This document shows, in pieces, positions 207 through 52,990 of a DNA stretch of 64,000 nucleotides. The notes under the pieces were generated by a model. It made no database searches. It was not told the DNA's origin and saw only the letters and a list, made by a program, of their open reading frames with translations. Position 1 is the first letter of the stretch, and each line of letters opens with the position of its first letter. Source of the DNA: Octopus vulgaris. Taxonomy: Eukaryota. The stretch covers positions 24,366,001 through 24,430,000 of the forward strand of contig OX597838.1 of the NCBI GenBank assembly GCA_951406725.2, written 5' to 3'. A program made the position numbers and the translations under genes.

Positions 207-397
207 CTCATGAAGTATGGATAAGTATCAGACGGAATATAGTAGTGTTTTATGTCTTGAATATAGAGGTGAGTGTTGAGTTCAGCTTTTTGCAGATGCA
301 GAAGGGAGCTTGATGAGCCGATGAGACGCAGCCGCCATCTACCACTAGGTATGGCTTGTTCCAGACTCCGAGCCTCTGCGATGAATGTGTACCCACG
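207..397 (-). CDS. ADGB: ADGB exon 30 (RGYTFIAEARS..RWRLRLIGSS..IKHYYIPS..)
   Basis: GYTF.AEA, RW.LRLIGS and YYIP motifs; GTGAAT donor, so the gene continues. Confidence 0.94.
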
Positions 398-2392
398 CTG
401 TTCAAGGAAAAAAAAAAAAAATTAAACCATAGGCGCAGGAGTGGCTGTATGGTAAGTAGCTTGCTAACCAACCACATGGTTCCGGGTTCAGTCCCACTGC
501 GTGGCATCTTGGGCAAGTGTCTTCTGCTATAGCCCCAGGCCGACCAATGCCTTGTGAGTGGATTTGGTAGACGGAAACTGAAAGAAGCCTGTCGTATATA
601 TGTATATATATATGTGTGTGTGTGGGTTTGTGTGTCTGTTTGTCCCCCTAGCATTGCTTGACAACCGATGCTGGTGTGTTTATGTCCCCGTCACTTAGTG
701 GTTCGGCAAAAGAGACTGATAGAATAAGTACTGGGCTTACAAAGAATAAGTCCCGGGGTCGATTTGCTCGACTAAAGGCGGTGCTCCAGCATGGCCGCAG
801 TCAAATGACTGAAACAAGTAAAAGAGTAAAAGAGTATAGAGAAAAAAAAAAAAGAGAGATTAGTTCCTGTTGATTGTCTTCGAATAAAAGTAATTTTCAG
901 GTTAATCTTTTGCTGGGGAATGTCATGTTTGGAACCATTTTTTTGTTGGGATATTCTTTATTTTCATTAGACTTCGACCATGCTGGGGTACCACCTTGAC
1001 AAATTCCAATTAAGCGAATTAATCTCAATACTTATTTTTTTAAAGCCTGTTAATTATTCTATCAGTCCCTTTTGCAAGAACTGCAAAGTTACAGGGACAT
1101 AAACACACCAACACTGGTTGTGATGTCATAGCGGAGGACAAACACAGACACAAATACACCCCCCACACACAAATACACCCCACACACACAAATACATCCC
1201 ACACACACACCCATAACGTTTTCGGTTTCCATCTACCATATCCACTTTCAGGGGACTTTCATCAAATCAGGGCTTTCATCAACACTTGGTCAAGGTGGTC
1301 ACACAGTGGGACTGAACCCAGGACCACGTTGGAAAGCAAATTTCTTACCATGCAGCCATGAAGCAAGGTGAAGAGGAGAAAATACCAATTCTATTTTCTG
1401 GTAGACATTTAATATCATTACCATAAAATTTAATTTAGTGATGAAAGGGTCCCTCCTCCTCCTCTTCCATTGTTGCCGCCATCACCGCCACTACCGCCAT
1501 TACCACTTGATGTCTGTCTTCGACGCTGGCATGGTTTAACAGGAGCTGGCAAGCCAGAGGATTGCACTAAGCTGCACTGTCTGTTCTGGTATGGTTTTTA
1601 TGGCAGGATGCTAGCGCTGCCTGACTGGCGTCCGTGTCGGTGACACGTAAAAGCACCAACCGATCGTGATTTGTTTGCCAGCCTCCTCTGGCCCCTGGTG
1701 CTGGTGGCATGTAAAAAGCACCCACTACACTCACGGAGTGGTTGGCGTTAGGAAGGGCATCCAGCTGTAGAAACACTGCCAGATCAGACTGGAGCCTGGT
1801 GCAGCCTCCTGGCTTCCCAGACCCTGGTTGAACTGTCCAACCCATGCTAGCATGGAAAACGGACATTAAACAATGATGATGATGATGATGATGATGATGC
1901 CCTTTCTAATGCCAACCACTTTACAGAGTGGACTGGATGCCTTTTAAATGACACCAACAAGGGACATAAATTCTGCTGTCATGGTAACAGGGCTTAAACT
2001 CTCTAACCCAATTATTGGTTGCCCAGTGTTTAACATTCCCTTGAAGACCCTACAGTGGAACTCTGGGGAGGTGAGTAAACATCTTGCAAAAAAAAAAAAA
2101 AGATTAAAAAATTGGGAGGAACTGACCTTATTTTTCCTATACACAAAAGGGGACACCTGCTTGAATACTTTGTTTATTTCGGCTCCGTTGTCGTTGTTGA
2201 TGACACGCAAAAAGCAGGTTTTTAGGTTCACATAAAGTTTGGGAACTACCATGATTTCCTCCGACACCAAAAATACCTCCCTGGATAAGAAAAGAAGATA
2301 TAAAAAAAAAGGAGAAAAGAAAAACATTAACAAATTATTCATCCTCATCATTGTTGTTGTTTGTTTGTTTGTTTGTTTGTTTGTTTGTTTGT

Positions 2393-2429
<37 letters not shown>

Positions 2430-5400
2430 CGTCGTCGTTGTTGTTGTTGTTGTTGTTGCTGTTGCTGCTGTTGTTGTTGTTAAGCAACAAGATGGGTAAG
2501 GGTGATTAGGTGATGGTCTAGGGCTTAGGGGCGGGAGACCCCCAGACCTTGGGGAAAAAAAAAATTGGTTGTCTTGTTGTAGTCGAGGGCTCTTTGTAGA
2601 CGCCCGACACCACTGGGAGGTGGCCCTCGAATTCACTGGAAATGGAGATCTCCAGGTCCAAATTCTTGAATGGCTGCTGCTGCTGCTGCTGTTGTTGTTG
2701 TTGTTGAGGTGATGAACAGGCAAAATTTTGAGCATGCTGAACAAAGTACTAAGCAGGATCTCATCTGGATTTATGTTCTGAGTTCAAATTCCACCAAGGT
2801 CAACTTTGTCTTTCATCCTTTTCGGATCACCAAAATAAATTCCCAGTCAAAAGCAGGTCTCCCTCGTCCAGAAGTTCTGTCCACTTTAAGTGATTGGCAC
2901 TTTTGTATGGAAACTGTCTACATCCATCCGCATCACATAACCAGACTATGTCAGTCTTCCCCCTTGCACACTACATAGAGGGGACAAACAAGGACAGACA
3001 AAGGGAATTAAGTCGATTACATCGACCCCAGTGCATAACTGGTACTTATTTAATCGACCCTAGTGACTTTTGCCCTTCTGACAGAACCCCATGGCTAAAA
3101 TATTCTGTGAAAACATGTCCAGCCATGGGGCTAGATACTATCTTATATAGAAAGAAGTGAGGGTTGGTGACAGGAAGAGCATCCAACTGTAGAAAATCTG
3201 CTTCAATAAACCCTGTTAAACGCATGCAAGCATGGAAAAGGGGGCATTAAGAGGATGATGATGACTGCAAGCCATTTTGACTTCCACTCTGTTTTGAAGA
3301 AATATTGGTTTCAAACTTTGGTGCAAGGCCATCAATTTCGGAAGAGGGGTAAGTCAATTACCTCAACACCAGTGATAAACTGATACTTATTTTATCAACC
3401 CTAAGACAATGAAAGGCAAAGACAACCCTGACAGAATTTGAACTCAGAACGTCTAAAGACGGACGAAATACCACTAAGCATTTTGTCCAGCATGTTGACA
3501 ATTCTGCCTGTTTTGAAGAAATATTAACAAAATAAATATCTTACCTGAAAACCACAAACCATGTCTCAGGGGGCTGTTCCCCGTATACTCCTTGGTAATC
3601 GGTGTAAGAGATTTTGTGCCAATCCTCTTTGTAGAAGCTGTGGTATGGGATGATTTTGGGGTTTTTACTTATCAGATACCTGGATAAATAGAGATGATAT
3701 AATAATGCATAATTATGATTGTCTCTGATTCCTTATATTAGGTCATCCGGAAAGTTTGTGCCACTTTATAGTAGCTTACCTTTCAACTTATTTTAGAACA
3801 TGGTTGAGTCCATAAAATAGGATTTGACTATACCTCCATTTAGAGCAGAGTTTAAGCTATCTTTTCGTGGAAGAAGGTTTATATTACTATGACCTGTGTT
3901 AATTCTGTAGCCCTTTAAAATGGAAGATAAGAAAGTTCATTTTTGGCACTTGATGCTTTTCTTTTTCCGAAAAGGGAAAAGTGCCTCACAAGCAACCAAA
4001 GAAATGTGTGCAGTTTATAGTGATGTTTCTTTATCCGAAAGAACTGTACGGATTGGTTCACGAGGTTCCGAGCTGGAGGTTGTAGCCTTATTGATAAAGA
4101 GCGATCAGGCAGACCATCCACTACAGATGATGACCAAATCAAGTCATTAATTGAGAATAACCCACATTGCACAACCTGAGAATTGGCAGAAAGCCTCAAC
4201 CTATCAAAATCCGTCATTCATGAGCACCTGGTAAAGCTTGGGTAATGGCAGGTATTTATTGACCTTTTTCTTTCCTTTAAAAACCGGCACGAACTTTCCG
4301 GACAACCCAATATTATATTATAACATAACATTATGAAAAAGCACACACACACACACACAAACACACACACATACACGCACGCACACATGTATGTACATGT
4401 ATGGAGGTCGTCATGTAAAAATGGTATAAGAGACTTTGCTTCGACCAGGATTACCAGGCTAAGGAGTGCAAGGCATAGTAGAAAAGCAGCGACAAATATA
4501 CCACTTGCACTGACCATTAACCCTCATCTCTCGCAACATCTGCAGGCTTCTTTGCAAATCATTGGCAGGATTCAAATGTCACATTCGATATAAGTATTAT
4601 GACTGACAAAGGGAATGGAGGCTGTCAGATACACATATGTCAAAACCAACAGGAGAGTCCATCACATATATACATACATATATATATATATAAAAGTATA
4701 CATATGTATATTTATATATCATCATCGTCATCATCATTGTTTAACGTCCGCTTTTCATGCTGGCATGGGTTGGACGATTTGACTGAGGACTGGTGAACCA
4801 CATGGCTGCACCAGGCTCAAATCTGATCTGGCAGAGTTTCTACGGCTGGATGCCCTTCCTAACACCAACCACTCTGAGAGTGTAGTGGGGGCTTTTATGT
4901 GCCACCGGCATGAGGGCCAGTCAGGTGGTACTGGCAATGGCCATGCTCAAATGGTGTTTTTTACATGCTACCTGCACAGGAGCCAGTCAAGCAACACTGG
5001 CAATGACCTCATTCGAATATTTTTTTCACATGGCACCGGCACAAGTACCAGTAGGGCAATACTGGTAACAATCATGCTCAAATGCTGCTTTTTACATGCC
5101 ACAGACATGGGAGCCAGTCAGCTGCCCTGGCAACGGCAACGATCACACTCGGATGGTGCATATATATATATATATATATATCAAGGAACTCTATATATTT
5201 ATTTATTTCAAATGGAACCTTAGCAAACAAGAGTAGAAATGTCTCCATTTTGTAGCTATGTAATTAAAGAAAAATAATTATATCTGTAGTTAGTCTGAAA
5301 TATAACTGATGTAATTAAAATAATTACCTGAACACATTAAGACCAATCTCTTCAATATTTGGTTTAATTTGAAGCCAAAACTTTTTCAAAACATCACATA

Positions 5401-6112
5401 CAGCGATGTTATCAGGTGTACCTTTAAGAAGATATTTTAACTCCACTTTAATCTCATTTCAATAACTGATTGCAAAACACCATCATATATACAGGTACAA
5501 CACTGTTCCAGAACCTGATTTTCCCAAACTAGGTGTGGCTATCTTCTTCAACATACTCTAAATTAAAGAAATATTGTCTTCAAATTTTGGCAGCAATTTC
5601 AGGAGAGGGGTAAGCCGATTCCATCAACCCTAGTGCTCAACTTTGAACTCAGAATGTAAGGCCAGACAGACAAAATGCCACCAAGCATTTTGCCCAGCAT
5701 GTTAATGATTCCGCCAGCTTGTTTGTTCCTTCTCAAGCCATGCCTGGCTCATAGGGCTGGTTTCCCGGTTTCCTTGGTATATAGGTTCCCCACCTGGACA
5801 GGACACCGGTCCATTGCAGGTGAGCTGCAAGATGCAGGAGGAAAGAGTGAGAGAGGAATCGAAACCACAATCTTACAATCATGATGCTGACACCCTAACC
5901 ACTAAGGCACGCGCCTCTACAATAAAGTTGGTGTTGTACCTGTATATTCTTCAATTTGGCAAATACATAAAACCTCTTTCTTACCGTGTGTGCGAGATCT
6001 TTTTATTTTACGAACATATGCCCCACGCCAGAAAGTCTGTATCTTTACCGCAGCGATTTGAAAGTCAATGTTGGTTTCCCTGTGAATTGTTTAAAAAGGA
6101 TACCACAAATTA

Positions 6113-6157
<45 letters not shown>

Positions 6158-6391
6158 TGTTGTTGTTATTATTATTTAAATAAATTGATAAATAAACAAT
6201 CAAGCAAACAAATAAATGGTTGTGTGGTTCAGAAGCTCACTTTGCTTCCACATGATTCTGGGTTCGGTCCCACATTGCAGCACCTTGGACAAGTGTCTTC
6301 TATTATAACCTCATACATATGTATATGTGTTTGTGTGTGTGTGTGTGTGTGTGTGCGTGTATGTATACACATATATGTATGTTTGTGTATA

Positions 6392-6424
<33 letters not shown>

Positions 6425-9400
6425 ATGTATGTATGTGGCTGTGGAGTGGCTGTGTGGTAAGTAGCTTGCTAACCAACCACATGGTTCCAGGTTCAGTCCC
6501 ACTGCGTGGCATCTTGGGCAAGTGTCTTCTGCTATAGCCCCGGGCCGACCAATGCCTTTGTGAGTGGATTTGGTAGACGGAAACTGAAAGAAGCCTGTCG
6601 TATATATGTATATATATATAAGTGTGTGTGTGTATATGTTTGTGTGTCTGTGTTTGTTCCCCTAGCATTGCTGGTGTGTTTACGTCCCCGTCACTTAGCG
6701 GTTTGGCAAAAGAGACCGATAGAATAAGTACTGGGCTTACAAAGAATAAATTCCAGGGTCGATTTGCTCGACTAAAGGCGGTGCTCCAGCATGGCCGCAG
6801 TCAAATGACTGAAACAAGTAAAAGAGTATGTATGTATGTATGTATGTAAAATTGTGTGGTTAAGAATTTTGCTTCCCAACCACATAGTTCCAGGTTCAGT
6901 CTCACTACATGGCTCCTCGTGCAGGGGTCTTCTACTATAATCCCAGGTCAAGAACGGATTTGGTAGACAGAATCTGAATGTTGCATTGCGCGTGTGTGTG
7001 TGTGTGTGCATACAAGGCAGTACTGAAAACACAAACAAGGCAGTACTGAAAAGTTCCTGGCTTTAAGGGTATTGTGAAAGGCCTAGTTGGAGGCCCAACC
7101 TTCTAGGTTCTTTTACAGGGTTTAGAAAATTTGACAACCTTACTGCAGAAAGCATATGAATCTCAATAAAATCCCAATCCTCCTGTATTTTCTTTTATCC
7201 TAAGCCAGGAACTTTTTCTGCACACCCTTGTGTGTGTGTGTGTGTGTGTGTGTGATTATTCAGCTTATTTCAAGATTTCTTACCAATAAAGAAAGGGCTA
7301 ATTTCTAATTCATTTGAATTTCATCAACATCAACAGGGTAAGCAGCTGTGGCAGAAAACACATGGCCATGGTCATGGGGCTGGAATGTCTTTGATCATAG
7401 GACCTGCTCAATCCCATATGACATTGGGGGTGGGGGTGGGGTTAAACAGCAGCAACAGCAGCCGTTCAAGAATTTGGACCTGGAGATCTCCATTTCCAGC
7501 AACTTCAAGGGCCACCTCCCAGTGGTGTCGGGCATCAACAAAGAGCCCTCTCGACCAAAGTTGTTTTTTTTTTCCCCAAGGTCTGGGGTCTCAATCCCAT
7601 ACGACATTGGGGGTGCAAGGGTTAAACAGCAGCAACAACAGCCGTTCAAGAATTTGGACCTGGAGATCTCCATTTCCAGTGACTTCAAGGGCCACCTCCC
7701 AGTGGTGTCGGGCATCAACAAAGAGCCCTCGACCAAAGTTTGTTTTTTTTTCCCCAAGGTCTGGGGTCTCAATCCCATATGACATTGGGGGTGGGAGGGT
7801 TAAACAGCAGCAACAACAGCCGTTCAAGAATTTGGACCTGGAGATCTATATTTCCAGTGACTTCGAGGGCCACCTCCCAGTGGTGTCGGGCATCAACAAA
7901 GAGCCCTCGACCAAAGTTTTTTTTTTTCCCCAAGGTCTGGGGTCTCCCACCCCTAAGCCCTAGACCATCACCTAATCACCCTTACCAGTATTGTTGCTTA
8001 ACAACAACAACAAAAACAACAACATGCACCAACATGTACTAACATATGCCAACATGCACATCTTTTCCAAAATTTTTTTTTTCACTCTGGCCATTGCCTG
8101 TTGACACATAATGTTCTAAGCAACATAGAGTTAACGAAGTACCAATTAGACACAATCCAAAAGAATCAAAAGAGAAACTCACATCTGCGGGAAAGGGTCA
8201 TACTTCTCAGTCTCTGTAGTGAAAATACAAACAAAAGGTACATTAATTTAGGGATAAAAAAAAAAGGGGGTAAAGACTCGTTTTGGTCACGAATGACCAT
8301 GGGATTGCACTTAGAAAGTTCCCCTCTGAGGCACAATTATAGGCAAGGTTGTTTATGGAAGACCAGCAGTTGCCCATGTATACCAGCCTCCCCTCTCCAC
8401 ACCACCAGTGTTATCCAAAGGAAAGACAAAGGGGCCAATATAGCTTGGCGCCAGTGACATTGCACCTCATTTCTACAGCTGAGTGAACTGGAGCAACGTG
8501 AAATAAAGTGTCTTGCTCAAGAACACAACACAGTCTGGTCCTGGAATCAAATTCACAACTTCATGATTGTAAGCCCAACACCCTAACCACTGAACTATGC
8601 ACCTTCACATAGCTATGCACCTTCACATACCTATGTGCCTTCACATAGCTATCTGCCTTTACATAGCTATTCACCTTCACATACCTATGTGACTTTACAT
8701 AGCGATGCACCTTCACAAAGCTATATGCCTTTACATAACTATGCACCTTCACATAGCTATATGCCTTCACATAGCTATTTGCCTTTACATAACTATGCAC
8801 CTTCACATAGCTATGCGCCTTCACACAGCTATATGCCTTCACATAGTTATGCACCTTCACATACCTATGTGCTTTCACATAGCTATATGCTTTCACATAG
8901 CTATGCATCTTCACATATCTATGTGCCTTTACAAAGCTATGCACCATCACATAGCTATGTGCCTTCACATTTAGGGATATCATTAACTAAAACTTGAGTA
9001 ATGTGTATAGCATTCTTGAAATATTATTATAGAACAAAGAATATCGATTAGATGTGAGAAAAGGGGTTGTGTGCAGATATGTCCGTATTGTTAAGAAGTT
9101 GTTTATGTAACTACCATGTAGTTGTGGGTCTAATTCCACTACATAGCACATTGAACAAATGTCCATTCAACCATAAATTCACCTTGATTAATTCCCTGTG
9201 GGTAAAACTTAATTTGCTTGATGGAAATTCTGTGGAAGCTCATCTCAGCTACATTATCTTCTATGAATACTTCGAATCATACACCATCTGCAAGTGGCAC
9301 AATATCTTTGTCGGTTTTTTTTTTATGTAAACTTTCTGCTTGTGAGAAACTTGTAAAATTAGTTTTCATTCACCGGGGTTTGATTGACACAAGGTAACCC

Positions 9401-10806
9401 AGAACCATTCTCAGAAGAGAGAACAACAATAAAGGAAGGAAAATGGACAGATGGACGGACAGACAGAGCCAAATAAACAACGAGACATATACATCAACAG
9501 ACAGACACATAGACAAACATAGAAAGACAGACATACAAACAGATGGACAGATGGACAGAAAAACATACAGACATACAGACAGATTGACAGGCAGTCAGAC
9601 AGGTATGTAGATAGGTAGACAGACAGACAGATAGACAGAAATATAAATAGAGAGATAGGTGGACATGGAAGCACTCCGTTGGTTACGACGACGAGGATTC
9701 CGGTTCATCCAAATCAACGGAACAGCCTGCTCGTGAAATTAACGTGTAAGTGGCTGAGCACTCCACAGACACGTGTACCCTTAACGTAGTTCTCGGGGAT
9801 ATTCAGCGTGACACAGAGAGTGACAAGGCCGGCCCTTTGAAATACAGATACAACAGAAACAGGAAGTAAGAGTGAGAGAAAGTTGTGGTGAAAGAGTACA
9901 GCAGGGATCACCACCATCCCCTGCCGGAGCCTTGTGGAGCTTTAGGTGTTTTCGCTCAATAAACAATCACAACGCCCGGTCTGGGAATCGAAACCGCCAT
10001 CCTATGACCGCGAGTCCGCTGCCCTAACCACTGGGCCATTGCGCCTCCACAAGAGAGATAGGTAGATAGGCAAAGAGATGGGGAGAGAAAGACAGATAGC
10101 TAGGGAGATAGACAGACAAAAGCAAGCAGATAAACAGAGTGACAGATAGTCAGATAGACAGATAATACTTACTTAGTTTACATGGTTGTTGTTGAAATGT
10201 AACTGGAGTGTTTTTCCAGTTCAGATCAAAGAAGAATGCCCTCCATGCAAACAGAGTTTCTGCGTTGAAGGGGACTGATTTAGAAAGGAGCCGAAGTAAA
10301 GACTCTTTAAAATTCTACAATGAGACAAAACAAAACCTCAGAGTAAATGTGTGCGTGTGTGTGTGTGTGTGTACACGTGCACACACACACACACACACAA
10401 GCACATACGTACATGCACGCATATATATAATCAAGACATCGCAAAAAGGAATGGAGAATTACACAGCTTCAAAACTTGTTTATTACAGTAGTATTCTCAT
10501 TAAATTCACATTAGATTCCAATCCAACACCTGTTTCTTCTGCATAAGTGTCATATTGTCCTTTGATGTAGCATTTATGTACATTTAGTTGGTTCATTTGC
10601 AGTGATATTCTCCTTTCTTACTTGTCCTATTTCTTCCTCTCTCACTCTTTTAACCATTCTTTTCTATTTGTCCCTGCCTGCTTGCATAACTCATTTGCAC
10701 TTTACTGCTAGTTATCTATCTTCCCTTCTCTGTCTGTCTATCTGTCTCTTTGTCCATCTGTCTGTCTCTCTGTCCATCTGTCTATCTGTTTGCCTGCCTG
10801 TCTGTC

Positions 10807-10859
<53 letters not shown>

Positions 10860-13025
10860 CTATCTCTATCTAATCCACTTCACTTTAGAATACTTTCTTT
10901 CTCTCTCTTCCACTTCTCTCAGCACAGCCACTGCTTTCCCTTTACAGCCTGACAGAAATATAGTGTGCATAAGATATTTGAGGGCATATTTACGTTTATA
11001 AAAAAACAGATATACAATAACAGATAATAACTTTATTTATCAAAGAATGCTATGAAGATAAAAATAAACCCCTAAAACCATGACAGTTGCAGGAAATTTT
11101 GTATGCATAACACTTGGAACTTCAGAAGGGTCTGCACATAACCATCTGTCATTTCTTCTCTTAACTATTTGATCTTGGTTGAAGTTTTTCTCATTTAAGA
11201 AAAGCCAAATCAAATCTTCTTCTGCTGGATTTTTCAGTTTGTTTAAGAGCCTTTTAGATCTGATGTAATGATTTACTTTTGCTTTTTCGGACAAAGTGAC
11301 CTTTCTATACCTTTACTACCCACATGGGGCTAAACACAGAGAGGACAAACAAGGACAGACAAACGGATTAAGTCGATTACATTGATCCCAGTGCTTAACT
11401 GGTACTTAATTTATCGACCCCGAAAGGATGAAAGGCAAAGTCGACCTCGGTGGAATTTGAATTCAGAACATAACAGCAGACGAAATACGGCTACGCATTT
11501 CGCCCGGTGTGCTTACATTTCTGCCAGCTTGCCGCCTGACAAAGTGACCATTCCTCACCATATAAGACTTATACCTGATGTCTTTGTGAACAACATTTCT
11601 GACTGTTCCTTCTGACACATGGAAATCTTTTGCAAATGACCTGTTGGACTTTCTGGGACTGTAATCAATGGTCTGTTGAACTTGCTGGATAAATTCAAGT
11701 GTTCTGATGATTTCAGAGCATTTAGAATGCTTTTTATGCTTTGATACTGGTGATACGTTTCCATCTTCAGTCTTTAGCTCCTTACAAACTTTGTAGACGA
11801 AAGATCTGGCAACTTTTAAAAATTGAGATATTTCTAAATGACTATGCTCAGCCTTTATAAACACAGTAACAGCATGCCTCTTCATCTCTTGAGTAAGCTG
11901 AGGACCTGCTACTATTATTTTCTGAAACAATGATTATACAAAGCGAGCAAAAAATGCAGCAATGACCCCAAAAACGGTATGTCCTCAAATACCTTACGCA
12001 CACTGTATATAATGCAACAAACAAACAAAAAAACATGTGACTTGGTATTTTTGTATATTATGTTACTAGAAAAAAACACCTTTAGTGATAGAATAAAAAC
12101 AGTATGTCCAGTTAATGTCCCCAAAATCTGATATTTTTAATGAAGCGCCTCCCTTATACCTCTTTCTCTCTCTCATCAATAATATCTAGCCATGATCCAC
12201 CAAATTCAGATACTTAAAAGGGAGATTTGGCTATTATTTCCAGCTAGCCATGTAACTAAATATCGACTCCCTAAGTGGTTTCTGTGTTCTCTAGTGTAAG
12301 GTCAAAATGCTCAGTGTGAACAAGACGGGTTTTGCTTTACCTCATACTGCTGACCCTTTGAGTAAGCCATTGCTGGTGCGGTGGGAAATAGGTAAACTCT
12401 CATTTTCTCCTTTGCTCGTTCATATTTTTCCTTGGAATGGAAATTCTCGATACAACTTTCAAAGCTGAGTATCAGTTGTGAAGCAGATTCTATGAAATGA
12501 CAGCTTTCCTGAAATAGAATTTCAAAAAAAAATTTTTTTTTAATTAAACAAAAATTGGAATTGCTTACAGATTTGGATGTTGGGTGAAAACTTAGAAGCA
12601 TGGGCATAATTCTGTAATCAAAGGTTGGGTTGCATAGGAAAGATGTTTAATTGAAGATCTGTATTACTATCCATTGGTCTTAGAGTATTCAAAGATGATG
12701 CAAAACATTGTAGAACAAAATAAGTTTAGAGGTATATGCACATGTATGTACACATGCATACACACACACACACACACACATACACACATACATACATACA
12801 TACGTACATACATACATACATACGTACATACATACGTACATACATACATACATTCTTTTATTCTTTCACCTACTTTGACTGCAGCCATGCTGGAGCACTA
12901 TCTTGAAGGGTTCAAGTTCCAGGACTTATTTCTTAAGCCTAGTACTTATTCTCTCGGTCTCTTTTGCCAAACTGATATATATATATATATATATATGTAC
13001 ATATCTATCTATCTATCTATCTATC

Positions 13026-13078
<53 letters not shown>

Positions 13079-13722
13079 ATATAATCAAAATAGCAACAAG
13101 GATATCCAGAGGTAATGCAGTACGATCGTTTCATGCGACTCCATTTAATTGAACAATGCAAACATTACATCAATTTAAAATGTAGAGCAATCTTCAGCTG
13201 CACTAAATTCTATATTTTTATGCAAGTTTTAGAACCCAAAGTCTTAGAATAGTTCTAGTGCACATGTTCTCAACCAGGATCCATATAAGCCCTTGTGGGG
13301 GTGGGGTCTATCTGTAATAAATTGGTTTTATTTCTGCAATACACAAAATATTTTAGCAATTTTTTAATACAATTCCTGATAATATTTAATTATAAAACAT
13401 AAAATAGATTTTTTTTAAACAACAAAGGGCTAGATGCATCCATCTGAGTAAAATAGGTGTCAAAGGGGTTTCTACGGGCAAAAAACTGGTTGAGAAACAC
13501 TGTTCTAGTGGGACTTAGAGAAATTCCGTTCAGATATGGAATGGAATGAAATGGGGGCAATATTTTCCAAAGAGGACTTACTTTGCTGCATTGATTCATA
13601 ATGGTCTCTTCATCTCCAAATATGAAAGGGCTATCGGAAGACAGGTGGATGCTGTAGCCTAAAGGGCTGGTCATCATGAACTTCAATACATGGCGTCTGA
13701 AATAATAATAATAATAATAATG

Positions 13723-13754
<32 letters not shown>

Positions 13755-16700
13755 TAATAATAATAATATATGGCTCAACTGACTGAAACAAGTAAGGAAA
13801 AAAAACAGAAAAAATGGACAGAGAAAATTTACCTACCCAGGTGGTAGTGTTAGTGTCACAGCACGGGTAGCAGTGGTTCGTAGCATTAGTATCGGTTGAC
13901 CAATGACCAGACTCTTCCAAGAATAAGGTTCGACAACGAGTTGACCAGGCTGAAGACTTGGAATTGAACCACTTTCTGGATGGCTGGAATCTAAGAGATT
14001 GGCAAAAGATTAGAGAAATTCATTTCTCACCATCAATGTCATTGCCACCACCACCACCACCACTACTGTCACCACAGCAACACACCATTATCACTACCAC
14101 CATTACCACCACTGCCATCAGCTTCATCACCATCACCGTTATCACCACCAACATTACCATCACCCCCCATCACCACCACCACCACCATTGCCATCAGCAC
14201 AATCATCAACCGCACCACAACCCTCACAACTACAACTACCATCACTACCACCATCACCACCATAGCCACCACCACCATCACCACCATCACCACCACCACT
14301 ACCACCCTCACCACCATAGCCACCACCACCACCACCACTACCATCACCACTACAACCACCACCACTACCACCATCACTATCACCATCACCATCATCAAAA
14401 ATCATCATCCTTCTGAAATTCCCCACCCTGTTCACATTTTTTATTGCACCGGATGCTGGGCCTCACTGAGGAGATGATAAAGGACCAGGAGTCATGGTGA
14501 TCTGCTGTACTTGAGAAAACACATCAAGCTAAGTAAAATCGCGCTATCCCCCATACACACAGGCTTCTTCTTTGCAGGCACTGGTGCCACATAAAAAGCA
14601 CTTTCATGTGCTGGTGCCACATGAAAGGGCACTCATGCTAATGCTGTGTAAACGCATCTGTGCTAGTGGCACATAAAAGACACCCAGCATACTTTGTATA
14701 GCAGTTCATATTAGGAAGAGCATCCAATTTCTTTATTAGCCACAAGGGCCCAAATATAGAGGGGGACAATACAGCCTGATTGGGATCAGATACACAATGA
14801 TTATATGACTTTTAAAATTTTACAAAATATAATGAAATCGAATGAAATCGAATGAGATACAACAAGGACGAAATACAAACATGAGATGAAGCAGAGAGAT
14901 GGCTTATGCTCCGACCCCACGAGCCCCATTCTCCTACTGAAACTTTTGTATGCAGACTTATGACATGTTCACGAGGAATCTTTCATTCCCAGCACCCTCG
15001 CAACATGCAACCATCTTTCTTTGAACATCGAGCCATAGAAACCATATTCCCAGCAGACAATTGGGAGTCTGGACAGCTCCCCCAGCTGACCAGCCCTTGT
15101 TAAACGGTCCAACCCATGCCAGCATGGAAAACAGACGTTAAACAATGATGATGGTGAACAAACACCATCGAGAACATCAGCTGCCTCAACTTCCCCAGTC
15201 ATGGAGGTGCCAGTAAAGGCCAGAAGCACTGACTCTTCCACCAGATGGTGCTGTTAGAGAGAAACGGCACCAGCCCAAAGCAATGTGGAATATTGGGCAA
15301 GCAGGTTTGTCTTGGATGGTTATTTCATGAAATGAACTCACCCCTTGAAAGAAAGCTCCCGAGAACAATCTAGTTGATAGAGCATGAACCATGGCTGAGC
15401 TTCACTGAAGGGAGCCCTAGCTTTTGTAACAGACAAAAATATAGTCAAATGAATGGGTCGGATAAAATCCACTACCCTAAGGGGCTAAACATTAATAAGA
15501 GCAGAAACGACAACAAAGTTTATACATATACACCCATAAAAACTCTACAGAGTCTTTAGTCATTATGTAGACCCATATGTAGACCCTTGTAAAGATACTA
15601 CATAAATCTCACACAGAGACCCTTACAGTTACTATAGTGTTTAAATAGAATCTGTCCGGTCCTTATTCACACCTATATTTCCCCTACGTTGTTTCCATAT
15701 AGCCCTGAAATAGATCCTTATAGTCACTATGTAGTCTCTGCAGAGACCCCAAACAACCAGGGTCATCTTCAGAGCATTATTAGCCCCAAGGCTAATAATG
15801 CTACTCTGGGCCCTATAGCATGTATTTATTGACAGGAAGCCACATCATAGATAAATTAGAATTGGGGCCCCTGAACAAGGTTGTTTGTGAAAGACCAGCA
15901 GTCTCCCTACTTCACCAGTGTGTCCATGCTTTGAAACAGCACTATGCACAGCCCTTATACACACTAATATAGTCCACATATGGTCACTGTATTGCCATCA
16001 AATATATCCTTACAGTCACTAAATAATCTCTGTACAGACCCCACACAGATCTTATACAGTTCTATATAGTCCCCACATAGACAATATATAGTCCTCAAAG
16101 GTGCCCTTACAGTCGTTATATACTCTCTACATTAACTACAATACAGTTCTTACACATACTCTCTTCATAATTTAAAACAGCCCCTACACAGACGCATCAT
16201 GAAACTGAAGAGGTAAAAATAAAAGATGCTATTTTTTTATCAGTTGATACTCACTTTCATATGAGTTTGGACTGAGACGGGCTTCTTCTTTTAATTTAAC
16301 GACATTGTCTTTGGGATTGGAACATTCGTTCCAACGGGATAATGATGAATAGCACACTACCAGCTCTGAGTTCACCAAACCATCTAAAACTGAAAAGAAG
16401 CTTAAGGAAAATTCCACTTGAATCTCACATTAGCATTAATATTTTTTTTTTTCTACTCTAGGTACAAGGTCCAAAATTTTGGAGGAGGGGCTCCAGTTAA
16501 TTAGATTGTCACCAGTATGCAACTGGTACTTAATTTATTGATCCAAAAGGATGGAAGGTACAGTCGACCTCGGTGGAATTTGAACTCAGAATGTAAAGAC
16601 AGACAAAATACCTATTTCTTTACTACCCACAAGGGGCTAAACATAGAGGGGACAAACAAGGACAGACATAGGTATTAAGTCGATTGCACCACAGATATAC

Positions 16701-17053
16701 ATACACTTAATGTTCTGTGTCTATAATATATATGTCACTCTGTCGGTCATGACAATGAGGGTTCCAGTTGATCCAACCAATGGAACAGCCTGCTTGTGAA
16801 ATTAAGTGGGCTGAGCGCTCCACAGATATTCTTTCATTCTTTTACTTGTTTCAGTCATGTGACTGTGGCTATGCTGGAGCACCACCTTCAGTCGAACAAA
16901 TCAACCCCAGGACTTATTCTTTATAAGCCTAGTATTTATTCTATTGGTCTGTTTTGCTGAACAGCCAAGTTAAAGGGGATGCAAACACACCAGTATCGGT
17001 GGAGGGATAAACACAGGCACACAAATACATTCATACATACATATATATGTAGG

Positions 17054-17095
<42 letters not shown>

Positions 17096-17298
17096 CATAT
17101 ATTTATATGTATATGTATATATACAATGGGCTTCTTTCAGTTTCCGTCTATCAAATCCACTCACAAGGCTTTGGTCAACCCAAGGCTATAGTAGAAGGAT
17201 ACATAAATATTGCATTGATTTCTCTTCTAAAAGAGCAGAAGTCATCTGAAAAAAAAAAACACGGTATGGAGAGGTGAAGTTGCAATGAGAAAACGTTT

Positions 17299-17355
<57 letters not shown>

Positions 17356-18478
17356 CTCTTTCTCTCTTTTACTTGTTTCAGTCATTTGACTGTGGCCATG
17401 CTGGAGCACCGCCTTTAGTCAAGCAAATCGACCCCAGCACGTAAAAGTACCCACTACACTCTTGGAGTGGTTGCCGTTAGGAAGGGCATCCAGCTGTAGA
17501 AACTCTGCCAGATCAAGACTGGAGCCTGGCACAGCCATCTGGTTCGCCACTCCTCAGTCAAATCGTCCAACCCATGCTAGCATGGAAAGCAGACAACCCA
17601 TGCTAGCATGGAAAGCAGATTATTATGATGATGATGATGATGATGATGATTCTCTCAGCTGCCTATTGTAGCCTTTGGGCGTAATAAAAATACAAGAGAA
17701 CTACTAACCACTACCTCTGACTCCAAGAAAACTACCATTTGGAGTTTCTGAATGCTACACCTTGAAAAACAGTCACAAGAAGGCTAAGCCCTGTGCATTG
17801 TGGTGGGATGCGTAAAGATTCCCATTTGGTGCGTGCGGGCAGATTGCACCAAACACAACAAATGATTCAATGGGCAGAGGTATGACATCAGACACAATAA
17901 CAATAGTTTGATAGAACTTGCTGAACATTTTGCATCAAACAGCTGCAATTTTGAGGAACTTAATTTATCGACCCCCGAAAGGATGAAAAGCAAAGCTGAC
18001 CTTGGCGGAATTTGAACTCAGAATGTAGCGGCAGACGAAATACTGCTCAGCATTTTGTTCGGCATGCTAACAATTCTGCCATTCGCCACCTTAATAATGA
18101 TCATTATATATTTCTTTACTACCCACAAGGGGTTAAACATAGAGGGGACAAACAAGGACAGACAAAGGGATTAAGTCGATTACATCGACCCAGTGCGAAA
18201 CTGGTACTTTATTTATCAACCCCGAAAGGATGAAAGGCTAAGTCGACCTCGGCGGAATTGATGATGATGATGATGATGATGATGGTGCTACTTACCCTAA
18301 TGTCAGATGCTTTTATATTGTTCTGGTACAGCATCGGTTTATGGTAATAGGAGAGACTACTGAAAATAGATATCAGAGAGATTACATAGACAATGAAGTG
18401 GTGGTACATATGAGTGATATATCTTTGGTCTATGCATAAGTGTGTGTGTATGTGTATAATGTGTCTGTATGTGTATAG

Positions 18479-18511
<33 letters not shown>

Positions 18512-19457
18512 ATATATACTCTTTTACTTGTTTCAGTCATTTGACTGTGGCCATGCTGGAGCACCACTTTTAGTCGAGCAAATCGACCCCAGGGCTTATT
18601 CTTTGGAAGTCTAGTACTTATTCTATTGGCCTTTTATGCTGAACCGCTAAGTTACAGGGGCATAAACACACCAGTATCGGTTCTCAAGTGATGTTGTGGG
18701 GACAAACACATACACAAACACACACACATATATACATATACATATATACGACAGGCCTCTTTTCAGTTTCCATCTACCAAATCCACTCACAAGGCCCAAC
18801 ACAGGTGCTCTTAACGTGTTACTAGCACAGATGTCTTTAACGTGTCACTGGCACAAATGCCCTTAACATGTCACCATCACGGGTGCCTTTAATATGTTAC
18901 CAGCGTGAGTACCTTTAATGTGTCATAGCACTGGTGTTCTTAATGTGTCACTGGCACAGGTGCCCTTAACATGTCACCAGTGCAGGCGCCTTTTACTAGT
19001 CACTGGCACAGGCCACGACTACAATTCCACTCAGCTTCACATGGTTAAGCAAGTACTATACTTAGTAATATTACTAGTTATGAAATACAGAGCAAATTTA
19101 GGAGAAACTGAGATAATCACAAGATTATACAACTTATTGCATCTACTACAATAATACTCTCATGTATTTCTCAGTCACAACATATGAATGAGAAAGGAAG
19201 GGGTGATAGATGAATGAGAAAGGAAGGGGTGATAGATGAATAAGGAAGGAAGGGGTGACAGCAAACTTAGTAGAGGGAAGATGGAAGTTCTACAGTGAAA
19301 AAAGTCAAACAGCGTTTCAACTCTGCGTGAGTATATGTGTGTGTATGTAAAAGGGTGTCAAGTGAATGTGTGTGTGTGTGTGTGTGTGCAATGGAAGTGA
19401 GATGGTGAACATTCAATGCTGAAAAGGAAAATCAAACAGCATTTCAACTCTGTGTGA

Positions 19458-19490
<33 letters not shown>

Positions 19491-22400
19491 TGTACAAGGG
19501 AAGTATGTGAATGTTTGCATCTGTGATTATTTTGTACCTTATTACCTCCGCCTTAGCGAAGGCAGAGGTATTGTTTTCAGTTGTGTTTGTTTGTTTGATT
19601 GTTTGTCCATGGACAAGATATCTCAAGAACCGCTTGATGGATTTGGATGAAAATTTCAGAGATGTTTGGCCTCCTGACTGGCACAAACTGATTAGATTTC
19701 GGGATTGATCCAGTACCAGACAAGGATTCTGGATTATTTTTCCTGTTCTTTGACTTAATTTTTGAGAGCAGTCAGGTTCATTTTTAGTATTCTCGTTTTG
19801 AGAACAGTCAAGTTTATTTCAGATATTCTCATTTTAAAAATCATCTCTGGCTAATCATTGAGAGGACATTGGTGTTACCTTGGTGGAGGTTTGCGCTCTC
19901 TGAGTGCTCTTGTTTATATATAAAATACTACAATTAGCCATCATATTTGACAGCACAGGGCCAGCTAGCTCTATTACTCTCTTTACTCTTTTACTTGTTT
20001 CAATCATTTGACTGCGGCCATGCTGGAGCACCGCCTTTAGTCGAGCAAATCGATCCCGGGACTTATTCTTTGGAAGCCCAGTACTTATTCTATTGGTCTC
20101 TTTTGCCGAACCGCTAAGTGACGGGGACGTAAACACGCCAGCATCGGTTGTCAAGCAATGCGGGGGGACAAATACAGACACACAAACATATACACACACA
20201 TACATATATATATATATACATATATACAACAGGCTTCTTTCAGTTTCCGTCTACCAAATCCACTCATAAGGCATTGGTCGACCCGGGGCTATAGCAGAAG
20301 ACACTTGCCCAAGATGCCACGCAGTGGGACTGAACCCGGAACCATGTGGTTGGTAAGCAAGCTACTTACCACACAGCCACTCCTGCGCCTATTATAGAGA
20401 ACTAATGTCAACCAAATCCACTTACAAGGCTTTGGTTGGCCTGAGGCTAGAATAGAACACAACTTGTTCGAGGTACCATGCAGTGAGGTTGAACCCAGAA
20501 CCATGTGGTTGAGAAGCAAACTTCTTACCACACAGCCACGCTTGTGCTTAATAGATTAAAAATATATTTAAAAAGGACCTCGTAGACTTACTTGAATGAT
20601 TTGCAGAAGAGCTCAAAGTCGACCCAGGTTTTCTTAAATCCAGTATGTTCTAGGTTAGGGAGAGTTGCAACTAAGTCGAAGTCACTTACTGGAAGTCCAT
20701 TCTTCTCATTGACTTCTTTGGTAACATTACTACTGTCTATGCTGTTGTCTAGAAAATGAAGCCAAAACAAAGTAAAAAAGAAATACTGCAGGAAGTTTCT
20801 CTCCCTTTTCTGTCTCTCACTCTCTCTCTTATTGCTCTCCTTACTCTCTATCCTCTTGCTCTCCTCACTCTCTATCCTCTTGCTCTCCTCACTCTCTTCT
20901 CTTACTCACCAAAGATCTCAGTTGCCTGTCATTGCCTCCATGAGGCCCAACATTCAAAGATCATGCTTCACCACCTCATCCTATGTCCTCCTAGGTCTAC
21001 TCCACTGTTAGAGTGTAACACTTCTTCACATGGCTATCCTCATCCATATGCATCATATGACCATGCCAGCGCAGTTGTCTTTCTTGCACACCACATCTGA
21101 TGTGTCTCTTATGCCCAACTTTTCTCTCAGGATGCTTACACTGCCTTGCATGAGATCAAACTGGTGTGATCAGCCTACTCTGCCATACTGGCTCTCATCT
21201 TTAGACCTGTCCACTCATAGATGTTGCTTTCCCATCTCTTTCTCTGTTCCCTGAAGGATTGTTTTGGCCATCAGACTGGAGCCTGGTGCAGCCTCCTGGC
21301 TTCCTAGGCCCTAGTCAAACCATTCAACCTATGCCAGCATGGAAAATGGACATTAAACAATGATGTCGTACCTATGCACTGGTCAAGTAGAAAAACGATG
21401 AGTGATAAAAAATTGGATTGTCTTCTGGTACCAAAAAAGTGAAGAAAGAGAGTAGAGAAGGTTAGGGAAGAGCAAGTAGGAAGAAAGAGAGAGTGCGGAG
21501 AAATAAGGGAATAAAGATAGGCAGTAGGTAGTTGACAGAGATGGACAGAGGAAGAAATGGAAGGCAATAAAGAGAGAAAAGCAGCAGACAGGTAGATAGA
21601 GGGGAGAGGAGAAGGACAGAGAAATAGATAGAAAAGAGAGACAGTCTTGCACCAGATATTGATCACTGTGTAGGGTACCACTGAGTGGGAACAGAAGTGG
21701 GTGTGTGACATTACATTGAGTAACAGCCATAAAATGTTGCACAGAAAGTCAACACACACACATATATAATGATGAAGGAAATTGTTGTATACAGTGCTCA
21801 GGTGCACTACAACTAAAAAGAAAAAAATGGCCATCAGGTGTACTGTTGGCGGATTTCAGGACACATGGAAGTTTTGAAGGATGTAGTGTCTCAACAGCTA
21901 ACAACTGATGTCTGACAGTTTCAGTCATTTGATTAGTGCCCATGCTGGAGCACCGCCTTTAGTCGAGCAAATCGACCCCAGGACTTATTCTTTGGAAGCC
22001 CAGTACTTATTCTATCAGTCTCTTTTGCCGAACTGCTAAGTGACGGGGACATAAACACACCAGCATCGGTTGTCAGCAATGCTAGGGGGACAAACACAGG
22101 CACACAAACATATATATATATATATATATACATATATACGACAGGCTTCTTTCAGTTTCCGTCTACCAAATCTACTCACAAGCCTTTGGTCAGCCCGAGG
22201 CTATACTAGAAGACACTTGCCCAAGATGCCTTGCAGTGGAACTGAACCCAGAACCATGTGGTTCGGAAGCAAGCTTCTTACTACACAGCCATGTGAAGGC
22301 ACATGGCCTAGTGGTTAGACTGTTGCACTCATGATTGTTAGATCATAGGTTCAATTCCCTGACTGGGCAGTGTGTAGTGTTCTTGAGTCAAACAGTTCAT

Positions 22401-23678
22401 TTCACATTGCTCTAGTCACCTTTTCAATCATTGGGGATTGCTCGCTTTGCCAACAGGGTGGCGTCATATAAAGGCTAAAACAATGCAAAAGTGCACTGTA
22501 GCCAGCGATGTGTAACAACATCTGACAGTCTGGTCAGTTACATGATATATATATACACACACATTCACACAGACACACACACACTCATACAAACACACAC
22601 ACACATATATTGTATATGTATGTATATATGAGTGCGTGTCCTTTGAGTTTGTGTTTGTTCATTCCCCACCCCCCTCACCATTGCTTGACGACTGGTGTTA
22701 GTTTGTTTATGTCCCATAACTTAAGGATTTCAGCAAAAGAGACCTAGAAAGCAAGTACCAGATTTAAAAAAGAAAACAAAAATACAGGCGCATGAGTGGC
22801 TGTGTGGTAAGTAGCTTGCTTACCAACCACATGGTTCCGGGTTCAGTCCCACTGCGTGGAATCTTGGGCAAGTGTCTTCTGCTATAGCCCTGGGCCAACC
22901 AATGCCTTGTGAGTGGATTTGGTAGACGGAAACTGAAAGAAGCCTGTCGTATATATGTATATATATATATATATATATGTTTGTGTGCCTGTGTTTGTCC
23001 CCCTAGCATTGCTTGACAACCGATGCTGGTGTGTTTATGTCCCTGTCACTTAGTGGTTCGGCAAAAGAGACTGATAGAATAAGTACTGGGCTTACAAAGA
23101 ATAAGTCCCAGGGTCGATTTGCTCGACTAAAGGCGGTGCTCCAGCATGGCCGCAGTCAAAATGACTGAAACAAGTAAAAAAGAAAAAAGAAAGAAAGAAA
23201 GAACATGAGTAATCAGGAAGGTGAGTGGGGGGGTGTTTAACTACTGTGCCCTTCAGGGTGATGCTCCAGCATGGCTACAGTCAAATGACCGAAACAAGTA
23301 AAAGACTAAAGGTGTGAAAAAGAAACAAAAACAAAAAAAAAGAGAGAGAAAACATATGGCCCTCACCCAATAATGGATGGATGTTTCCATTCACAGAGTC
23401 CTTTTTACTTCCTTTCTTCTTCTTTTCGGAATTGATGGAGTGGTTGTATTTCTCACTGCCGCTGGTTCTGGTCTGTCTTGGTTTATCGGAGTTGTTTGTC
23501 CCTGGCTGTTTTACTTTGCCCTATCGTTACAGGAGAAGGTCAAATGAACATCAGTGAATCATAATTTATATCAATGTGAGACAGAAGAAGTTGTTTTTAT
23601 TGTTGCTGTCTTAGCAGTGCACACATGCACGCACACGCACACACACACACACACATACATACACACATGCACGTACAC

Positions 23679-23712
<34 letters not shown>

Positions 23713-23898
23713 TACAGTTCTATATTTAAGAGATAAGGAATTATGTACATTATTTACATTATTTACATTATACATTTGACGGATATTTGTCCTCATCTTG
23801 TTTGTTGTTAACACGTTTAGGCTAATATACCCTCCAGCCTTCATCAGGTGTGTTGGGGAAATTTTGAACCTGAGTTCTCATTCCTAAGGTATTTTCTA

Positions 23899-23931
<33 letters not shown>

Positions 23932-25340
23932 AGTCACTGCCTGGAATTGAACTCGGAATTATGGGGTTAGTAGCCCACACTCTTAACCACTAGACCGACG
24001 GGCATATGGCATAGTGGTTAAGAGCTTGGCCTACTAACCCCAAGATTCCAAGAAGAATAATAATAATATAATAATAATAACAACAACAACAACAACATCA
24101 AAAATACCTTAGGAATGGGAACCCAGGTTTGAATTTCCCCAAGACACCTGATGAAGGCTGGAGAGTATATCAACCGAAACATGTTAACAACAAACAAGAT
24201 GAAGAGAAATATCTGTCAAATGTAAATAATGTATATGTTTGTGTGTGTGCGTATATATATATATATACTAGCAGCATAGCCCGGCGTTGCCCAGGTATGG
24301 AAGGCGTCCCCTAGACAGTCTGTGGTTTGTGTTTAATACACAAATCGGTTTGCTATGTGTGCCACATATGATTTAATTAACTGATTTTTTCCAGTAATAA
24401 AGTATCCTATTGGAATAAAAAGGGCCATATAACTCCTTGGAGCAGACATGATGCTCGCTGTGAATTTAAAAAAAAATTCCTGCCAATTTGTGAAAGATAT
24501 TGTTGAAAATATGTCATCTTGAATTTGAACGCGATTTCCCAAAATGGCATGATTTTATCGATTTTTTCTCATGGTAAGGTATTGCATGGAAAACTTGAAA
24601 AGCTTAGATTCTTGACCCCATGTCGAATTTATCGATTTTTTTCAGAACTTGGGGAACTTTTCAAAACTTTCGCTGCGTTAGTTTTGAATTATGACATTGG
24701 GCTATGTGTGTGTCAAGTTTCATCAGAATCGGTTGAAAGCCGTGGTCAGCGTGAGGGTACAACCTGACAGACACACAAACACACAGACAGACAAACTGCC
24801 GTTTATATATAGATATATAATATATATATATATGGGGGTTGCCGAAAAGTTCCTGGCTTTAGGTAAAAGAGAATACAGGAGGATTAGTTAATTATGATTT
24901 TATTCAACATATTCCTCTCTCAGATTCCCATACTTATTGCAGCGGTCCTTCAGTTTTTCTAAGCCCAGTAAAAGAACTCGGAAGGCTGGGCCTCCAACTG
25001 GGACTTTCACAACACCTTTAAAGCCAGGAACTTTTCAGCAACCCCTCATATGCACTTCCACATACATACACATGCACTGTGGTAAACTGGTGTTGCAAAT
25101 AGAAATGGTTCAGAAACAATTGTAACTTATAAATTAAGATGTGTTAGAGAATTTTCTTTGTCTTTTTTTTTCTTTTCATTGGATTGTTTATTCTTTGCCA
25201 AACCCATTTTATGGTAGAATCGTCATGAAACTTGGATTTTCTACACCCGAAGAATTCCGGCTTTGGCCTAGAATCCAACAATGTTTGGGTCAAGTGCTTC
25301 TCTGGAAATACCCTAACTTCACAATCCACCCACCTGACCT

Positions 25341-25424
<84 letters not shown>

Positions 25425-27901: not shown

Positions 27902-27946
<45 letters not shown>

Positions 27947-28085
27947 GCACATACAAATCCACAACAAGGCTTTGGTTGGCCTGAGATTATAGTAGAAGAT
28001 ACTTGCCCATGGTAACACAGAGTGGGACTGAACCAAGACCATGTGGTTGGGAAGCAAGCTTCTTATCACATAGCTACATCTGCAC

Positions 28086-28164
<79 letters not shown>

Positions 28165-28551
28165 CACACATACATAGATAGGTTTGCATGTATTCAGGTA
28201 CATTGGTCTTTGATAAATAATTTAATAATTCTTCTGTCGGAACTTACATTATAGTTGGAATTGAGACTGGGTTGATTTTGTAATACAGAAATGCTGTGGC
28301 TAATTCCAAACACCTAATTTGGGTTGATTCTTCAGTGACTGGTTAATTTTATGCAAAAGAAAAAAACAGAAAAAAAAAAGAAAGAAACAATTCAAGATAA
28401 TAATTGATAAATTAATTAATTATTTTAAAAAATTTTGTCAATAAAACATGCTTGATGTATGTGTGAAGTTGAAACACCAAAAGCTGCAATTTTCATCCAG
28501 GAAAAAAAAACTGGGCTTTTTTTAACACAACAATTCTGCCAGCTCACCGCC

Positions 28552-28584
<33 letters not shown>

Positions 28585-28658
28585 TTAATAATAATTAATA
28601 ATAATAATAATAATTATAATAATAATAATAATAATTAATAATAATAATAATAATAATA

Positions 28659-28691
<33 letters not shown>

Positions 28692-28725
28692 TAATAATAA
28701 TAATAATAATTAATAATTAATAATA

Positions 28726-28783
<58 letters not shown>

Positions 28784-34700: not shown

Positions 34701-34714
34701 CTACTTTCTATATA

Positions 34715-34771
<57 letters not shown>

Positions 34772-52700: not shown

Positions 52701-52871
52701 CCCCCCCCCACCAAAAATCTCTTTTATATAAAAATGAACAAGCTGTTTTGTACATTCACAAAATTTTATTTTTGACAAGTTCAAGAAAGGAACGAAAGCG
52801 CTAATAATAATGAAGAAATAAAAAGATTTTGTTTCCAAAATTCTGACGACTTTTTTTTTCTCAACATACAT

Positions 52872-52912
<41 letters not shown>

Positions 52913-52954
52913 CATAGAATATATTATATATAACATATAACACACACACATACA

Positions 52955-52990
<36 letters not shown>

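Follow-up and report, generated by a model that had tools for sequence, protein, structure and literature searches.

The androglobin gene in the window

The window, a 64-kb stretch (64 000 nt) of Octopus vulgaris contig OX597838.1, carries an androglobin (ADGB) gene on its minus strand. The peptide of exon 23 gave a single protein match, 100 % over its full length, to the androglobin-like protein P0001 of O. vulgaris, whose cluster includes P0002 of Octopus sinensis. Thirty in-frame coding blocks running from 53721 down to 209 are the ADGB exons, and exact-block matching placed 1174 of the first 1183 residues of P0001. Coding exons 1–30 (P0001 residues 1–1183) lie at 209..53721, and the exon blocks put the 3′ end of the gene beyond the start of the window. 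On P0002, which is nearly identical, Peptidase_C2 and Androglobin domains II, IV and V all exceeded the Pfam cut-off; the calpain-like N-terminal domain and all three Androglobin domains of the family are present. A tree built from the flanks alone grouped Octopus with two decapod-type rows (support 0.999), as expected of an orthologue.

Globin helices in permuted order, split by an IQ motif, were identified by alignment, motif and structural model. Androglobin domain II, the beta flank upstream of the globin, ends in exon 22 (13582..13695, minus strand, as are all exons below; block match and Pfam). Exon 23 (12341..12508; residues 848–903), placed by block match, spliced contigs and the model, encodes helices E and F and the start of G. 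The rest of helix G, helix H and a linker follow in exon 24 (10174..10314, edges to whole codons; block match and model), the permuted helices A and B in exon 27 (5327..5419; block match and model), and helices B–C with the start of domain IV in exon 28 (3544..3678; block match). The IQ calmodulin-binding motif, in exon 26 (6010..6054), keeps the IQxxxRGxxxR pattern, and one of its seven conserved sites is changed in octopus. The Pfam IQ score of 11 bits lies below the cut-off of 20.3, which no scanned relative reaches either.

Contigs from runs X3 and X6, which belong to two studies, cover exactly 12341–12508 with no letter differences, and their loose ends match the first letters of the following exon, which starts at 10314. 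We took them as spliced transcripts from these exon-exact ends, the RNA label attached to both runs being itself a guess; contigs of this kind hide rare variants. Runs X15 and X18 (organisms B and C, with 0.75 of words) contributed no cover of the exon and are uninformative here. Octopus ADGB is an intact, spliced and expressed orthologue. An earlier note on this DNA had described the gene as otherwise intact and retaining its IQ motif, and the 30 in-frame blocks, the spliced contigs and the motif pattern bear this out; its numbering of exon 23, the 23rd of these blocks, is also right.

Two introns contain further open frames. Two minus-strand frames in intron 23 (11933–11466 and 11312–11043) are presumably a broken transposase of Tc1/mariner type; Pfam gave the first weak helix-turn-helix matches only (CENP-B_N, E 0.0007, below cut-off) and the second no match. 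In intron 1, again on the minus strand, the frame at 52499–52212 resembles a C2H2 zinc finger (its best Pfam E of 4.7e-06 is below cut-off), and the one at 51695–51336, without a Pfam match, resembles the end of a LINE reverse transcriptase. The intron 1 frames are probably retroelement remains. The start of the Octopus bimaculoides protein P0122 resembles the intron at about 12672–12509 (minus strand); since that frame is closed by a stop in the window, the P0122 start is likely to be a gene-model artefact.

Exon 23 and the globin fold

Re-reading the window confirmed the exon 23 peptide, its coordinates and its AG/GT borders, together with the two codons on which the earlier note had built its claim. 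These are TCT (12487–12485), encoding Ser855 at the E7 column (12485..12487), and CTA (12391–12389), encoding Leu887 at the proximal His F8 column (12389..12391). Alignment placed four further residues of interest, likewise on the minus strand: His851 (CAT, 12497..12499), four residues before E7; Tyr886 (TAC, 12392..12394), at F7 and a candidate substitute ligand; Gln901 (12347..12349), which replaces a G-helix His; and His1037 (3642–3640), in exon 28 at the revised CD1 column. Exon 23 of O. sinensis is identical to that of O. vulgaris, and P0122 of O. bimaculoides has Ser and Leu at the same two columns. The residue calls are real and not an assembly error, as three Octopus species and the contigs of two studies agree.

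The assignment of Leu887 to F8 depends on the alignment register. Register shifts of −5 to +5 gave a positive score only at shift 0 (mean BLOSUM62 18.2; next best −3.4), and this shift places the octopus Leu opposite His. No indel relative to octopus was found over residues 848–905 in 24 of 25 mollusc rows. In the vole row of an alignment of 121 ADGBs, a Gln and a His 32 residues apart stand at octopus columns 855 and 887, and the column five before the vole Gln is Cys in most rows. This spacing agrees with the human Cys787, Gln792 (E7) and His824 (F8) as numbered in passages of PMC9249397, PMC11077535 and PMC11665612. The register is unambiguous. In AlphaFold2 models, helix F ends at model residue 52 in both octopus and cuttlefish, with Leu in the former and His in the latter; confidence over the ten residues from model residue 51 was 77 in octopus versus 96 in cuttlefish. 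The gapless alignment with Leu at F8 proposed in the earlier note thus holds in the shift test, the mollusc alignment and the predicted end of helix F, and neither the cross-family alignment nor the structure prediction that it had called for places a His at octopus F8.

Could the histidine be restored in the transcript? From CTA, either His codon is two substitutions away, and the only codon that A-to-I editing can make of CUA is CUG, which also encodes Leu. We rejected editing as a rescue on these grounds, as the earlier note had done.

Profile searches do not see the octopus globin. The Pfam Globin model matched neither of two octopus proteins but all 13 others scanned (11 above cut-off), and exon 23 alone had no match in Pfam or PDB. 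The helical fold nonetheless seems to persist: the AlphaFold2 model of the octopus domain has the same helix order as that of cuttlefish (mean pLDDT 83 versus 85), a likeness that is weak evidence because the two 45-row alignments share most rows. Foldseek returned no match at E≤0.001. With VIA-align, 8 of 50 rows for octopus were globin-fold by entry title (best Z 4.3, rmsd 3.6, 87 aligned residues, spanning model positions 7–98), compared with 19 of 50 for the cuttlefish control (best Z 4.9, rmsd 3.5, 86 aligned), both below the level at which the tool is trusted. In both models the matches cover the E–H half only, as expected for a permuted domain. As the scores are weak for octopus and cuttlefish alike, they do not demonstrate a collapse of the pocket.

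Heme-pocket columns and substitution rates across the family

Heme globins hold their iron through His F8. At this column Leu is found in all three Octopus proteins and His in all 29 other mollusc rows, which represent one row per species where discernible, with duplicate isoforms left out. The His-keeping rows include the cuttlefish Acanthosepion pharaonis (P0003) and P0004, which groups with it. Babylonia areolata has two divergent ADGBs (P0030 and P0057), both with His F8, in a gene described as mostly single-copy. Across the family His F8 is present in 99 of 122 ADGB rows and missing in 23, and loss has been published for hexapods (in part of PMC7457136), so that this residue, which the earlier note had called essentially invariant in heme-binding globins, is not invariant within ADGB.

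The claim that both heme ligands had been lost stands for F8, where Leu replaces His, and fails for E7. The octopus residues had been placed rightly, but Gln is not what molluscs have at E7: the column is mostly Gln in vertebrates, whereas of the 29 other mollusc rows 28 have Asn, and the octopus change is Asn to Ser. Among the 99 rows with His F8, E7 is Asn in 47, Gln in 34, His in six, Lys in four, Thr in three, Ser in two and other residues in three. Because the column is variable family-wide and Asn in molluscs, the octopus Ser is not the loss of a conserved ligand.

Other pocket columns also differ. The His at column 901, which may correspond to a motif common in globin G helices, occurs in 91 of 99 His-F8 rows versus four of the 23 non-His rows (rows that are not independent of each other). 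At the CD1 column, which corresponds to Tyr976 in the numbering of PMC11077535, every one of the 92 ungapped His-F8 rows has an aromatic residue, Tyr or Phe; O. vulgaris and O. sinensis have His1037 there and O. bimaculoides has Tyr. Phe852, at or near an older CD1 assignment, is kept in octopus.

By reading the flank-only tree by eye, we counted seven clear lineages of F8 loss in the 122 rows: Octopus (Leu), sea cucumbers (Tyr), rotifers (Ile/Tyr), Hyla (Leu), Pampus (Leu), Etheostoma (Tyr) and Scatophagus (Tyr). The count leaves out a jellyfish row and its sister, whose alignment is uncertain, as well as a gapped shark row, and the four vertebrate losses rest on single records. These frog and fish records (P0078, P0093, P0097 and P0107) have close relatives that keep His and, if real, represent recent vertebrate losses. 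Tyr at F8 was seen in P0092, P0095, P0102, P0104, P0105, P0109, P0110, P0119, P0121, P0037, P0056 and P0096, which are bdelloid rotifers (with rows that group with them) and sea cucumbers; the sea cucumber proteins still score above the Pfam Globin cut-off. Unlike the octopus Leu, a Tyr at F8 could itself ligate heme. In a further set of 142 proteins (139 representatives and three shorter matches), which is enriched for divergent sequences, 62 cover F8, 17 of them with His and 32 with Tyr.

A relative-rate test with 12 outgroups, from which the F8 column was excluded, compared the globin helices with the downstream flank. Octopus had 31 private changes in the helices versus six in cuttlefish, and 18 versus 18 in the flank (Fisher p=0.003). 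Across the four pairings of an octopus with a decapod row, which are not independent, p ranged from 0.003 to 0.005. For O. bimaculoides versus cuttlefish the first comparison gave p=0.10, because P0122 lacks domain II and has a start that resembles the upstream intron; with the downstream flank alone, p=0.003. On a fixed tree, substitutions per site on the octopus stem amount to 1.00 for the globin and 0.29 for the flank, compared with 0.14 and 0.18 on the decapod stem. Of the sites conserved in at least 95 % of other mollusc rows, octopus has changed 12/34 in the globin versus 9/97 in the IQ motif and flanks, the globin changes including Cys888 and the G-helix His901. Within Octopus, 29 of 141 globin sites differ versus six of 189 flank sites. 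It should be noted that in most lineages, His-keepers included, the globin outpaces the flank (tree-wide ratio 1.7), and that, among 21 pairs with small counts, a His-keeping clam pair has a higher globin/flank ratio (8.3) than the Octopus pair (7.1). None of eight tests found a globin-specific excess in the other F8-less lineages, and in Hyla the trend was opposite (p=0.049). There is statistical support for a relaxed constraint on the octopus globin domain, as judged from these substitution patterns, and the octopus-specific jump in rate would imply that a constraint was lifted.

A putative heme-less scaffold and its alternatives

Octopus androglobin, though intact, has lost its proximal heme ligand, and this loss is real and lineage-specific. 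We think it probable, from sequence comparison, that octopus ADGB is a globin fold without heme, retained as a scaffold for calmodulin binding. A heme-less domain had been the earlier note's reading too, and it stays the likeliest one given Leu at F8 in an intact, spliced gene, with the two-ligand framing dropped. F8-based heme binding would have ceased on the octopus stem, between the divergence from cuttlefish and, apparently, the last common ancestor of O. vulgaris, O. sinensis and O. bimaculoides. Among the matches listed, no further octopod, vampire squid or Nautilus ADGB was present to date the loss. A Leu side chain would be unable to ligate iron, and with it the heme, NO and nitrite chemistry known for human ADGB would be lost; heme spectra and nitrite reductase activity of the human domain are reported in portions of PMC11077535 and PMC11665612. 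We propose that the helical domain is retained for its IQ motif and for keeping the beta domains in position.

By analogy with better-known relatives, the octopus protein may still work as a calmodulin-binding structural subunit of the central apparatus (C1b) of cilia and sperm. Calmodulin binding by the human domain survives mutation of F8 and E7 and depletion of heme (from a section of PMC9249397), and its targeting to the centrosome is likewise described as independent of F8, E7 and heme (in part of PMC13696810). ADGB has been located in the distal C1b projection (according to an excerpt of PMC8175508), and a model fitted to density from mouse sperm shows it together with SPEF2 and calmodulin (PMC12642653, in part). 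Relatives without heme ligands or without the globin would be the precedent for such a role. In the available text of PMC13331133, ADGBs of unicellular eukaryotes outside the choanoflagellates have no globin; with Chlamydomonas FAP42 (PDB 7n6g_6M, E 4.7e-21; also excerpts of PMC8175508), they are members of a central-apparatus family that function without it. In these the globin insert was never present, whereas octopus ADGB still has both insert and IQ motif but has lost the ligand.

An artefact (misalignment, an assembly error, or an alternative exon or paralogue that bears the His) is very improbable and largely refuted already. Contigs do drop rare variants; on the other side stand the register test, positive at shift 0 only, and the concordance of three species and two transcript studies. 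Moreover, no His-[Cys/Tyr/Phe]-Pro-[Tyr/Phe] motif occurs in any minus-strand frame of the 64-kb window, and of 163 full-length matches the 120 that were listed include no second ADGB from Octopus, nor do the three shorter matches. It is also unlikely, to a lesser degree, that the pocket was remodelled so that heme or another cofactor is bound via Tyr886 or His851, or without a protein ligand. Helices E–G have no indels, the helices persist, and the long octopus stem branch could represent an adaptive burst. Tyr886 and His851 are shared by O. vulgaris/O. sinensis and O. bimaculoides and absent from the two decapod-type rows, which makes them octopus-specific among the cephalopods sampled. The bolder version of this proposal, in which about one substitution per site on the octopus stem rebuilt the pocket into a new sensor that binds heme or another small ligand via Tyr886 or His851 and is coupled to calmodulin in the ciliary central apparatus, we consider quite unlikely. 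However, Tyr at F7 also occurs in six of the 99 His-F8 rows, which weakens the case that the earlier note made for it as a ligand, and His851 lies one turn from E7, where it replaces an Arg conserved in 94 of those 99. Met883, the other substitute proposed in the earlier note, was rejected, as O. bimaculoides has Leu there, and His1037 is confined to O. vulgaris and O. sinensis. Fast change is ongoing within the genus, a pattern more in keeping with relaxation than with a new site that has become fixed.

The remaining alternative holds that heme is marginal to ADGB in vivo, that His is kept for folding or by weak selection, and that the octopus change is drift with function unchanged. The 23 rows without His F8 in the 122 of the named search, spread over seven clear lineages of which four are vertebrate, speak for it, as do the 45 of 62 divergent representatives without His and the variability of E7. 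Against it, all 29 other mollusc rows keep the His, the vertebrate losses are single records each, the human domain shows heme spectra and nitrite reductase activity (parts of PMC11077535 and PMC11665612), and the jump in rate specific to octopus implies the release of a constraint. We regard this alternative as unlikely. According to the available portion of PMC7457136, all hexapod ADGBs, whose globin domain is degenerate, lack the E7 His/Gln and the F8 His; octopus ADGB is of the same kind, with the gene kept, both residues absent and the globin missed by profile search. It differs in that the loss is independent, with a close His-keeping sister group (cuttlefish), in the absence of indels relative to molluscs in helices E–G, and in having Leu at F8. 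Human ADGB shares with octopus the calpain-like domain, domain II, the IQ-split permuted globin and domains IV–V (as laid out in sections of PMC11077535, PMC11665612 and PMC9249397), but it binds heme and has His824, Gln792 and Tyr976 (PMC11077535, in part), where O. vulgaris has Leu, Ser and His at F8, E7 and CD1. A globin fold without heme is also described for the N-terminal domain of RsbR (2bnl) and for photoglobin (PMC8717448), unrelated bacterial families in which the likeness to the proposed octopus state is one of principle only (weak structural score, Z 3.6).

We did not find the octopus F8 loss in print; the passages available from PMC4527676 and PMC7475203 add nothing on F8 loss, and earlier ADGB alignments may bear on the known His-less cases. 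A passage of PMC8136487 states that Adgb was lost in octopus. The intact gene contradicts and corrects this, the globin being invisible to Pfam; our guess is that a globin-profile search missed the gene.

Octopus is a new instance of a published kind of loss, and the surprise is limited, since the same loss is already published for insects. Judging from the repeated losses, in sea cucumbers, in rotifers and in individual records from a frog and from fishes, ADGB can often do without heme. A natural pair for bench comparison is given by octopus and cuttlefish, with domains of equal length without and with the His. Gain of the globin has been suggested to add oxygen or redox control (in an excerpt of PMC13331133), and the human domain performs NO and nitrite chemistry in vitro (PMC11077535 and PMC11665612, in part). 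The octopus case bears on whether ADGB needs heme for its work in cilia and sperm.
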